A DNA stretch of 64,000 nucleotides from a virus (Duplodnaviria; Caudoviricetes): the IMG/VR virus record IMGVR_UViG_3300028832_000004, positions 63,988 to 127,987 of that record; one strand, given 5' to 3'. Shown here piece after piece: positions 3,567 through 22,778 of this stretch. Numbering within the stretch: position 1 is the stretch's first letter; each line of letters starts with the position of its first letter. The translations under genes were made by a program, and so were the position numbers. Under the pieces are notes generated by a model. That model saw only the letters and a list, made by a program, of their open reading frames with translations, searched no databases and was not told the origin of the DNA.

Positions 3567-3640
3567 AACGCGTTACCGGACTCGAACCAGTGGCTTACCG
3601 GGTGTATCCGCCCGAGCTCTACCAACTGAGCTAAACGTGT
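3567..3640 (-). tRNA. atypical tRNA-like gene, 8-nt anticodon loop CGGATACA (Ile-GAT-like)
   Basis: ACACGTT/AACGCGT acceptor (1 mismatch), D arm GCTC-AGTTGGTA-GAGC, TCGGG/CCCGG stem, T arm ACTGG-TTCGAGT-CCGGT; no U33. Confidence 0.7.
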
Positions 3641-3755
3641 AGGGGTTTCGACAGCATTTCAAACTTGCGGTGCGCTCTAGCCCGGTGGAGCGATGCGTTC
3701 CTCGTAAGGACTGAGCATCCGGGCGTCACCAAACATAATATACGCCGCAATAAAC

Positions 3756-3980
3756 CTAATGATTCGGATCTACAAGGCGGACAAGATCGCCCACGGTCTT
3801 TATACGATCCAGTTCTGAATCGGAAATGTTGGCGCCGAACTCATCTTCCAAATCTAGTGAAATCATAAGACGCTCATAGTCATCCTCCGAAAAGACAGTT
3901 TCAAGATTGGTATCCTCGGTGATGTCCGAAATGGCGAGGCGGTCTTCGAGAATGGTCTTAACACGATCAAATGCGGTCAT
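3756..3980 (-). CDS. acyl carrier protein-like protein lacking the phosphopantetheinylated Ser
   Basis: FDRVKTIL..DITEDTNL..LEDEFGANISDSELDRIKTVGDLV aligns with AcpP; DSL motif reads DDY. Confidence 0.8.
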   Translation of the reverse strand: MTAFDRVKTILEDRLAISDITEDTNLETVFSEDDYERLMISLDLEDEFGANISDSELDRIKTVGDLVRLVDPNH

Positions 3981-4056
3981 ATACTATTCCTTAAAATAAA
4001 TCGTTTGCGCGTGATGCCCAAGCCTAAGATGAGGCATCACGCCTTCTTTTATGTAG

Positions 4057-4129
4057 GGGCAGGAGCCGGACTCGGACCGGCAACCTAGGAATTAGTATAT
4101 TCCCTGCTCTACCATTGAGCTATCCCGCC
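4057..4129 (-). tRNA. atypical tRNA-like gene, 8-nt anticodon loop TATACTAA
   Basis: GGCGGGA/TCCTGCC acceptor, D arm GCTC-AATGGTA-GAGC, GGGAA/TTCCT stem, T loop TCCGAGT. Confidence 0.75.
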
Positions 4130-4149
4130 ATAGTCCTTGTGGTTGATAG

Positions 4150-4430
4150 TCACTTTTCGTTCGGGAGTAGCCGAACGAGCCCTGAAGGATGCCGGGCGCT
4201 CCGTCTTCCCACCCTATTGACGGAACAGAGGGAAACTACTCCACACGGGTAATCAGCCCGTACTACGTAGCCGGTCCTGATGCAGTTTGGCCCTCCACCG
4301 AGCACTGCTTAGTCGGTAGCCGTAGCATCCGACCTACATCAGTCAGTTTTCCGATTTCCTTCAGCCTAATGCGGTCTCCAGCGCTTTGCCTCGGTCCGCT
4401 TCGCTTATCACGGTCACCTTGGCAAAACCT
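4150..4430 (-). ncRNA. large multi-helix structured RNA, unclassified
   Basis: At least six hairpins, long-range CTGAAGGA/TCCTTCAG helix and a GAGTAG/CTACTC loop pairing; no convincing ORF. Confidence 0.45.
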
Positions 4431-4435
4431 CATCG

Positions 4436-4551
4436 GGAGGTGATTAAATATACATACCAAATGCTCTACACGTTGGCAGGTGCTTCGCCCCGTCTGTGAC
4501 CTCGGCGTGCAACTTGCGTATCGGTATCCCTGTCGAAACCAAGGCACCCCC
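4436..4551 (-). ncRNA. miniature tmRNA-like RNA (no mRNA-like domain, no T arm)
   Basis: GGGGGTG-CCTTGGTTTCGACAGGG start, GCACGCCGAGG and AACGTGTAG helix-2 hallmarks, 3' CACCTCC giving G3.U70. Confidence 0.65.
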
Positions 4552-4557
4552 GATAGT

Positions 4558-4746
4558 TTAAACCTGAACCGGAGCCTGAGCTTCAGCCTTCGGAGCCTTG
4601 GCGGCCTTTTCAGCGGCCCGTTCAGCCTTGCGCTGCTCACGGAGCGGGGTCAATTCGGCGAGAACCTGCGATGTATCTTTTCCACCCTTCTTAAGGGTCG
4701 ACAGCTTATGTGTGAGCTTGCGAATCTTCAACTGCAATTCGGTCAT
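4558..4746 (-). CDS. small basic Lys/Ala-rich protein
   Basis: ATG 4746 after AAGGAG; CGTATATT -10 at about 4788-4795. Confidence 0.65.
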   Translation of the reverse strand: MTELQLKIRKLTHKLSTLKKGGKDTSQVLAELTPLREQRKAERAAEKAAKAPKAEAQAPVQV

Positions 4747-7164: not shown

Positions 7165-7701
7165 ATGGAAAAATTCACCAAAGCACAAATCGAAAAAATC
7201 ACGCAATACGCCAAGGAGCATTTCACTGTCGAAAAGGACGCGAAATGGGCGGATTCGTGGGATGTCCTGATGGATGGCTGCTTCATCACGCTTGCCCATA
7301 AGGAATTTGAAAACGAGGGCTGCGCCTACAACATCCCGGTCGGGGATCCGAAACTGGAACTCGCATTCGAACTGGATGGGGAAGTTCTCCTCCTTGTAGA
7401 AAAGGAGATTTCGAAGGTGGAAGCCTATCGCGACTTTGACAAAACAAGCGACAGCCGCGTTGCCTGCATCGGATTCTCGGAAAAGAATCAGGTGTGGACT
7501 GGCTGGTCTCATCGCGCCTACTGCAGTTTCAAGATCGGGGACGAAATCAAGAAGGGCGACCTTGCCGCGGATTCCGGTTGGAACTCCGAATACGAAAAGG
7601 AACACCCCGAAAGATGCTTCAATCTCAAGCCCGGTTTCAAATGCGAAACCCTCGATGATTGTCGCAAGGCAGCTATCGCCTACGCGATGGCAGTGGCTTA
7701 A
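7165..7701 (+). CDS. hypothetical phage protein
   Basis: AGGAG RBS, upstream GTATATT; WTGWSHRA segment. Confidence 0.75.
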   Translation: MEKFTKAQIEKITQYAKEHFTVEKDAKWADSWDVLMDGCFITLAHKEFENEGCAYNIPVGDPKLELAFELDGEVLLLVEKEISKVEAYRDFDKTSDSRVACIGFSEKNQVWTGWSHRAYCSFKIGDEIKKGDLAADSGWNSEYEKEHPERCFNLKPGFKCETLDDCRKAAIAYAMAVA

Positions 7702-22701: not shown

Positions 22702-22778
22702 TGGCAGTTTTGGGAATCGAACCCATCATCGTACTAGCTTTCGAAAGCTAGGTGCTCTCCCGACTGAGCTATACTGCC
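22702..22778 (-). tRNA. atypical tRNA-like gene, 8-nt loop TTTCGAAA (Arg-TCG-like)
   Basis: GGCAGT/ACTGCC acceptor, GCTC-AGTCGGGA-GAGC, palindromic anticodon arm CTAGCTTTCGAAAGCTAG, TGGG-TTCGATT-CCCA. Confidence 0.75.

Follow-up and report, generated by a model that had tools for sequence, protein, structure and literature searches.

A tmRNA gene fragment without its 3′ end at a probable mosaic junction in a phage genome

A 116-nt stretch on the minus strand of a complete phage genome, which the original prediction read as a minimal tmRNA, is best explained as a tmRNA pseudogene, truncated at its 3′ side by a mosaic junction; we assign this reading a probability of about 0.86. The genome is a 127,987-bp IMG/VR record with direct terminal repeats. 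Its second half, a stretch of 64,000 nt, is called the window here, and positions refer to the window unless another contig is named. The tmRNA gene fragment inside the element is real but ordinary, and the 116-nt ‘mini-tmRNA’ as a unit is neither a real feature nor a new kind of RNA. Table 1 lists the pieces of which the region is made, together with the intact tmRNAs of related phages.

Table 1. Features at the tmRNA fragment and intact tmRNAs of relatives
Feature	Position	Strand	Basis or remark
Small Lys/Ala-rich ORF, 62 aa	4558..4746	(-)	Stop TAA at 4558-4560
Putative 116-nt element	4551→4436	(-)	In the phage genome half analysed
Genuine tmRNA 5′ fragment, nt 1-65	4487..4551	(-)	RF00023 score and homology to intact tmRNAs
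Orphaned 3′ end of an ancestral small-gene copy (EAPANV codons and TAG stop)	4486→4466	(-)	Translation and identity
GTATATT promoter-like (-10 type) box	4447..4453	(-)	Over-representation and position
First hairpin of the downstream RNA (CCTC, 5-nt loop, GAGG)	4428..4442	(-)	Conservation
5′ module of the downstream non-coding RNA, L030/L033 type	4360..4427	(-)	Alignment and consensus fold
Conserved ‘ornate’ RNA core and tRNA-like gene with 8-nt anticodon loop (4057-4129)	3999..4359	(-)	Not part of any tmRNA
Full tmRNAs	L017:6355-6710; L038:3714-4065; L042:1299-1651; L043:1560-1915		Tags AAPVAQAA* or AAPVAMAA*

A 65-nt fragment carries the tmRNA signal

Read on the minus strand, the element opens with a tmRNA-type 5′ end, a D-loop analogue and the 5′ strand of helix 2 up to CCGAGG, where pk1 begins. 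An acceptor-like pairing of 7 bp, with a G.U at position 3, is possible within it. The tag reading frame, the pseudoknots, the T arm and the terminal ACCA are all missing, as had been predicted. At Rfam gathering thresholds the window yields tRNAs only, and ARAGORN makes no tmRNA call and reports no tag there. The alignment to the Rfam tmRNA model that the original prediction proposed as a check did give a global match in a permissive scan (RF00023, 4435–4551; the T arm and 255 positions in the middle of the model count as deletions), but its 30.8 bits lie below the gathering threshold of 47 bits. Scanned alone, positions 4487–4551 give a 3′-truncated match to model positions 1–64 with 32.9 bits; the whole 117 nt score less than this, so the 3′ half adds nothing to the resemblance to tmRNA. 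Neither score reaches the level of a one-piece ssrA RNA, for which relatives of this phage score 156 bits, and the fold predicted for the full 120 nt is no more stable than those of dinucleotide shuffles (z = −0.11). Of a tRNA-like domain, the element has no homologous 3′ acceptor strand, T arm, discriminator A or CCA; of an mRNA-like domain, it has no resume codon, tag frame, stop or pseudoknots.

The predicted tmRNA ancestry of the 5′ end is borne out by the score of the fragment and by its identity to intact relatives. The 65 nt hold the 5′ acceptor strand, the D-loop analogue, the helix-2 5′ strand and the start of pk1, and break off in the pk1 loop. Over nt 12–61 there are no substitutions relative to the tmRNAs of L017 and L043 and one relative to those of L038 and L042. 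In a pairwise comparison with phage L007, the window is identical over the first ~61 tmRNA nt, bar one extra T, and unrelated directly beyond. Homology to full tmRNAs ends at 4488, and we place the break point at 4487/4486. The fragment is thus a stretch collinear with four intact relatives, in the same gene order, that stops sharply, and the sequence past the break has an unrelated origin and is present in relatives that have no tmRNA.

The fragment starts 6 nt past the stop codon of the small Lys/Ala-rich gene. Because no terminator was found between the two, transcripts of the small gene most likely run on into the fragment and carry it as a 3′ tail, a prediction from sequence. The small ORF matches no Pfam family; a homology search with it returned 18 homologues, and a protein-pattern scan of IMG/VR found the same phage only.

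Relatives carry a full tmRNA, none or a truncated one

An exact 24-mer from the 5′ part occurs in one other IMG/VR phage, L007 (131,711 bp; also L023), where the small ORF is followed by a one-piece tmRNA (156 bits in L007/L017, which correspond to the full-tmRNA genome G001) with the tag AAPVAQAA*. Exact-pattern scans of IMG/VR and of a metagenome collection returned only this phage besides our own, the rest being chance 17–20-mer matches without a tmRNA, and a DNA search of the INPHARED phage collection gave no match. An exact 23-mer of the tmRNA 5′ end was absent from GTDB genomes; a degenerate 5′-end pattern matched many tmRNAs of gut and rumen Bacillota and Cloacimonadota, the best of them only ~70% identical over the full length.

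Among relatives, full tmRNAs of 352–356 nt lie directly after the small gene in L017/L029, L038–L041, L042 and L043, and in L017, L038–L041, L042 and L043 they start 3–9 nt past its stop codon. Four independent relatives have an intact gene at the place of the window’s fragment, and between L017 and L038 a helix-2 pair covaries (G/C to T/A). L026, L028, L030, L032/L033 and L035 have no tmRNA behind the small gene. In three of them (L030, L033 and L026) the last codons of this gene spell ...EAPANV/A; next come a GTATATT box and a short hairpin with which a conserved non-coding RNA begins. The original prediction had stated that it would be undermined by relatives carrying a full tmRNA together with an untranscribed copy here; full tmRNAs at the same locus were indeed found, and transcription of the fragment is, as described above, probable.

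The truncated form was found, among the contigs that we fetched, in the window and in L025 only, the latter being the same genotype from another sample. L025 is an independent assembly that is identical across the junction, so the junction is not a mis-assembly. An identical small protein is encoded on 14 contigs, 11 of which have the same neighbouring genes, with the junction readable only in L025. The truncated allele is known from one strain-level lineage only, in at least two independent assemblies, and the presence of the genotype on 14 contigs indicates that it is not obviously deleterious.

Intact copies are nearly invariant over the stretch that the fragment covers (0–1 differences), whereas the flanking small gene is only ~80% identical to its relatives. 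Because of this near-invariance, and because the allele is known from one lineage only, a recent truncation would suffice to explain the identity of the fragment to intact tmRNAs; constraint would fit as well.

Sub-threshold RF00023 hits of 141 nt in L030 and L033 were considered as further tmRNAs and set aside as unconfirmed, with 17.6 bits in one context and 7.4 in another. The ~141-nt element (L030:3963-4103, L033:4897-5037, G001:81295-81462) resembles a tRNA-like RNA: it has a T arm, an acceptor-like stem of 7 bp and, inside, a long helix. G001 carries it in addition to its full tmRNA; the window’s genome does not contain it.

The 3′ half is a gene end, a box and the start of another RNA

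The sequence directly past the break translates as ...GEAPANV*, and the small-gene homologues P0003 and P0010 end in AEAPANV. At the nucleotide level, its 21 positions are all identical to the end of the small gene in the tmRNA-less L026, and 20 of 21 match L030. The window thus has two ends of this gene, a functional one (...APVQV*) at 4558 and an orphan at 4466, and the CGTGT that had been taken for the 3′ strand of helix 2 consists of the Asn-Val-stop codons of the orphan. We also considered the 3′ half as a collapsed remnant of pk4 and helix 2 and rejected this: a free-gap alignment to the L017 tmRNA gave only scattered 7–10-nt matches, and the gene-end homology accounts for the sequence. 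A pattern scan with the 3′ half returned no match.

The AT-rich linker that was thought to replace the T arm contains the GTATATT box, which is also found 3′ of the small gene in L030, L033 and L026. The motif is present in 25 copies in the window compared with 7.6 ± 2.8 in shuffles, none of 100 of which reached 25, and the other copies typically lie 15–25 nt upstream of a ribosome-binding site and ATG. It looks like the −10-type promoter element of the phage. The roughly threefold over-representation includes minus-strand sites, for example at 2414, 2662, 3737, 4447 and 4788, before genes and RNA units, and in relatives the motif often has the extended form TTC-GTATATT-TA. Between the orphan stop and the box, the spacer measures 12 nt in the window versus 8 nt in relatives, and the added sequence includes a GGTAT that is able to pair with the ATACC of helix 2.

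The supposed 3′ acceptor strand, CACCTCC (4436–4442), is the 5′ side of the hairpin with which the downstream RNA opens. Box and hairpin are kept with one substitution in the tmRNA-less L030, L032 and L033; at the aligned hairpin, L017 has CTTC...GAAG in place of CCTC...GAGG, with both sides changed, and the theme of box plus hairpin recurs at 2662 on the minus strand. When the downstream module was folded with RNAalifold, CCTC preferred a long-range partner to the local hairpin, with both partners lying inside the downstream RNA.

Co-folding of the 65-nt fragment with the real 55-nt 3′ half gave −10.2 kcal/mol, a value that 21% of 1,500 random 55-mers drawn from this phage matched or beat; homologous sequence in the tmRNA-less L030 and L033 gave −9.4 and −9.8 kcal/mol, and a genuine tmRNA 3′ end gave −17.0 kcal/mol. 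The original prediction had held helix 2 and the acceptor stem to be intact, and had taken two clean deletions that spare both helices as a sign of selection. Neither point survives. The pairing is no stronger than expected by chance, and what look like 3′ strands come from a gene end and from the opening hairpin of the following RNA, both present in phages without an adjacent tmRNA, and not from a tmRNA; the argument from clean deletions therefore fails.

The RNA region downstream of the junction

From 4486 to ~4347, the window is 87–89% identical to L030:3678-3792 and L033:3684-3819, unlike L017; positions 3999–4359 are 89% identical to both L017:4343-4706 and L030:4309-4673. This switch of identity along the window, from L030/L033 to L017 and L030 alike, is, as far as alignments tell, ordinary phage mosaicism. 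The ~360-nt ornate core matches no Rfam family and is preceded by a separately exchangeable 5′ module of ~85 nt (4360–4443, minus strand) common to L030 and L033; in L030, a 516-nt insert splits the core from this module. Thermodynamic folding detected no signal in the 306 nt downstream (z = −1.27).

Several tRNA-like genes in these phages (window 3567–3640, 4057–4129 and 22702–22778, minus strand; L017:4093-4166 and 4401-4476) form good cloverleaves with anticodon loops of 8 nt or another length that is not 7 nt. These genes are syntenic in L017 and L030, and their loops differ between phages (ARAGORN: gata/ac in the window, gtca/tt in L017). The leader and 5′ acceptor strand (3634–3660, minus strand) of the tRNA-like gene at 3567–3640 include a perfect complement of tmRNA nt 12–22 (11 nt; 4530–4540). 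The same leader also complements the orphan gene end and the spacer that follows (4459–4474, minus strand) over 9 + 7 nt that are contiguous in the target. Compared with its counterpart in L017 (4170–4200, minus strand), it shows 7 transitions clustered in 14 nt within a region otherwise 91% identical, and in L017 the 11-nt pairing between leader and tmRNA survives with two G.U pairs. Candidate readings of this complementarity are an antisense function, gene conversion and chance.

Two protein-coding observations complete the survey of the window. An ORF of 74 aa that resembles an acyl carrier protein (3756–3980, minus strand; PP-binding, 23.7 bits) lies among the RNA genes, at a place where L017 has only 74 nt. 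On the plus strand, positions 7165–7701 encode a 178-aa protein that matches Tad6, a type I Thoeris inhibitor (PF25188, E = 1.3e-28), and that is kept in L026 and L029.

Origin of the junction and alternative explanations

The arrangement would be explained as follows. In this group of ~130-kb phages, a standard one-piece tmRNA appears to be an optional accessory placed directly 3′ of the small Lys/Ala-rich gene. A single event, either illegitimate recombination or a deletion within an ancestor that was itself mosaic, would have fused nt 65 of the tmRNA, in the pk1 loop, to a second copy of the small gene of the tmRNA-less type, seven codons ahead of its stop. About 290 nt would have been lost in this order of events: the tag frame, pk1–pk4, the 3′ strand of helix 2, the T arm and the 3′ acceptor strand. 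Their place would have been taken by the orphaned end of the small gene, the GTATATT box and the beginning of the following non-coding RNA. The covariance model threads a ‘global’ tmRNA alignment through the fusion because CGTGT and CACCTCC happen to be able to pair with the fragment. So composed, the element is expected to be incapable of being charged, has no T arm for contacts with EF-Tu or the SmpB elbow, and encodes no tag.

The original prediction had favoured a selected decoy that resembles the tRNA-like domain (TLD) and had named a relic as another option. As a decoy, the chimeric 116-nt RNA, with acceptor stem (G3.U70) and helix 2 but no T arm, would titrate SmpB, AlaRS or a tmRNA-directed factor, as has been suggested for TLD-only molecules. 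The relic is what the evidence supports, and we regard the decoy as very improbable. A global Rfam alignment does exist, the acceptor-like pairing with its G.U can be drawn, the fragment is free of substitutions and a spacer specific to the window supplies the GGTAT complement; moreover, the literature offers precedents in the TLD-only tmRNA of phage DS6A and in a TLD-like molecule that inhibits tmRNA (both cited in PMC4131195). Yet the 3′ half adds no score and pairs no better than chance, its helix strands belong to a gene end and to another RNA’s hairpin that both occur in tmRNA-less phages, CACCTCC has conserved partners inside the downstream RNA, and a promoter-like box sits between the two halves. 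A decoy would also have to do without T arm, discriminator A and CCA, and the allele is seen in one strain-level lineage only. A related notion, that the fragment and the fortuitously complementary sequence downstream were co-opted as a T-arm-less tmRNA mimic, or that the fragment is an antisense partner of the leader at 3634–3660, strikes us as a long shot of much the same order; if true, it would disturb host trans-translation or the processing of the phage’s odd tRNA-like RNAs, and would account for a substitution-free fragment in a widely sampled phage.

Retention of the 65 nt for a role in cis, as a structured 3′ untranslated region or as a processing or stability signal derived from the former tmRNA cleavage, is unlikely, if slightly less so. 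Its start 6 nt after the stop codon, the lack of an intervening terminator and the identity to intact copies would all suit such a role. Against it, the tmRNA-less L026, L028, L030 and L033 manage without the fragment, folding of the fragment on its own predicts nothing stable except a short hairpin, and a recent event explains the identity equally well. A split tmRNA, two-piece or permuted, with the T-arm, acceptor and message parts elsewhere in the phage, deserves almost no credence. The genome is rich in tRNA-like elements, and the original prediction had suggested looking for a separate piece. None turned up in the complete genome: a DNA search with nt 62–356 of the sister tmRNA gave no match (best 18 nt, E = 0.06), models of permuted tmRNA (RF04321 and relatives) gave nothing above 8 bits, and the only other RF00023 matches are T arms of ordinary tRNAs, so that no separate acceptor piece, tmRNA T arm or 3′ CCA end is present. 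A gene for SmpB was found neither in the window’s phage nor in G001, the one full-tmRNA genome searched. The tmRNA pseudogene at a mosaic junction is the reading that we retain.

Relation to known tmRNA forms

The element has the defining features of a known class, the tmRNA gene fragment, and is not a tmRNA, a TLD-only form or a split tmRNA. Curation of the tmRNA Website sets aside tmRNA pseudogenes and ssrA fragments ‘missing one gene end’ (Hudson, Lau & Williams 2014, PMC4131195). Like these, the window element is contiguous with one end of an intact tmRNA, loses homology abruptly, lacks the rest and falls below threshold in tmRNA finders. It differs in lying in a lytic-type phage genome and not a bacterial chromosome, and in how it seems to have arisen: mosaic recombination beside a small ORF left the 5′ end, whereas integration of genomic islands leaves 3′ fragments.

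Phages with ssrA have been listed, including the mycobacteriophages Bxz1, Catera and others and Bacillus phage G (PMC4131195). The sister phages L017, L038, L042 and L043 carry such a full-length gene, from which the window fragment derives, but the window copy has lost everything past nt 65. Mycobacteriophage DS6A has a “TLD only” form, described as ‘little more than the TLD’ and as a possible titrator of SmpB (PMC4131195). The window element shares with this form, and with engineered TLD inhibitors, the loss of the message domain and pseudoknots and a phage context. DS6A, however, keeps a complete tRNA-like domain. In the window, just two parts of that domain, the 5′ acceptor strand and the D-loop analogue, come from a tmRNA; with neither a T arm nor a genuine 3′ acceptor strand, the tmRNA-derived sequence is unable to form a TLD.

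Implications

The case carries a caution for the annotation of structured RNAs: a “global” alignment to a covariance model can extend from a gene fragment into its unrelated flank, and a reader, human or AI, can then see clean deletions that preserve helices. The matter is resolved quickly by comparing the score of the fragment alone with that of the whole element, and by inspecting the flank in relatives without the gene. For the phages themselves, a full tmRNA that follows a conserved small ORF is now seen in a group of ~130-kb metagenomic phages, where it is present, absent or truncated depending on the member. Because its presence varies in this way within the group, the distribution marks the phage tmRNA as what would be a dispensable and frequently exchanged accessory.
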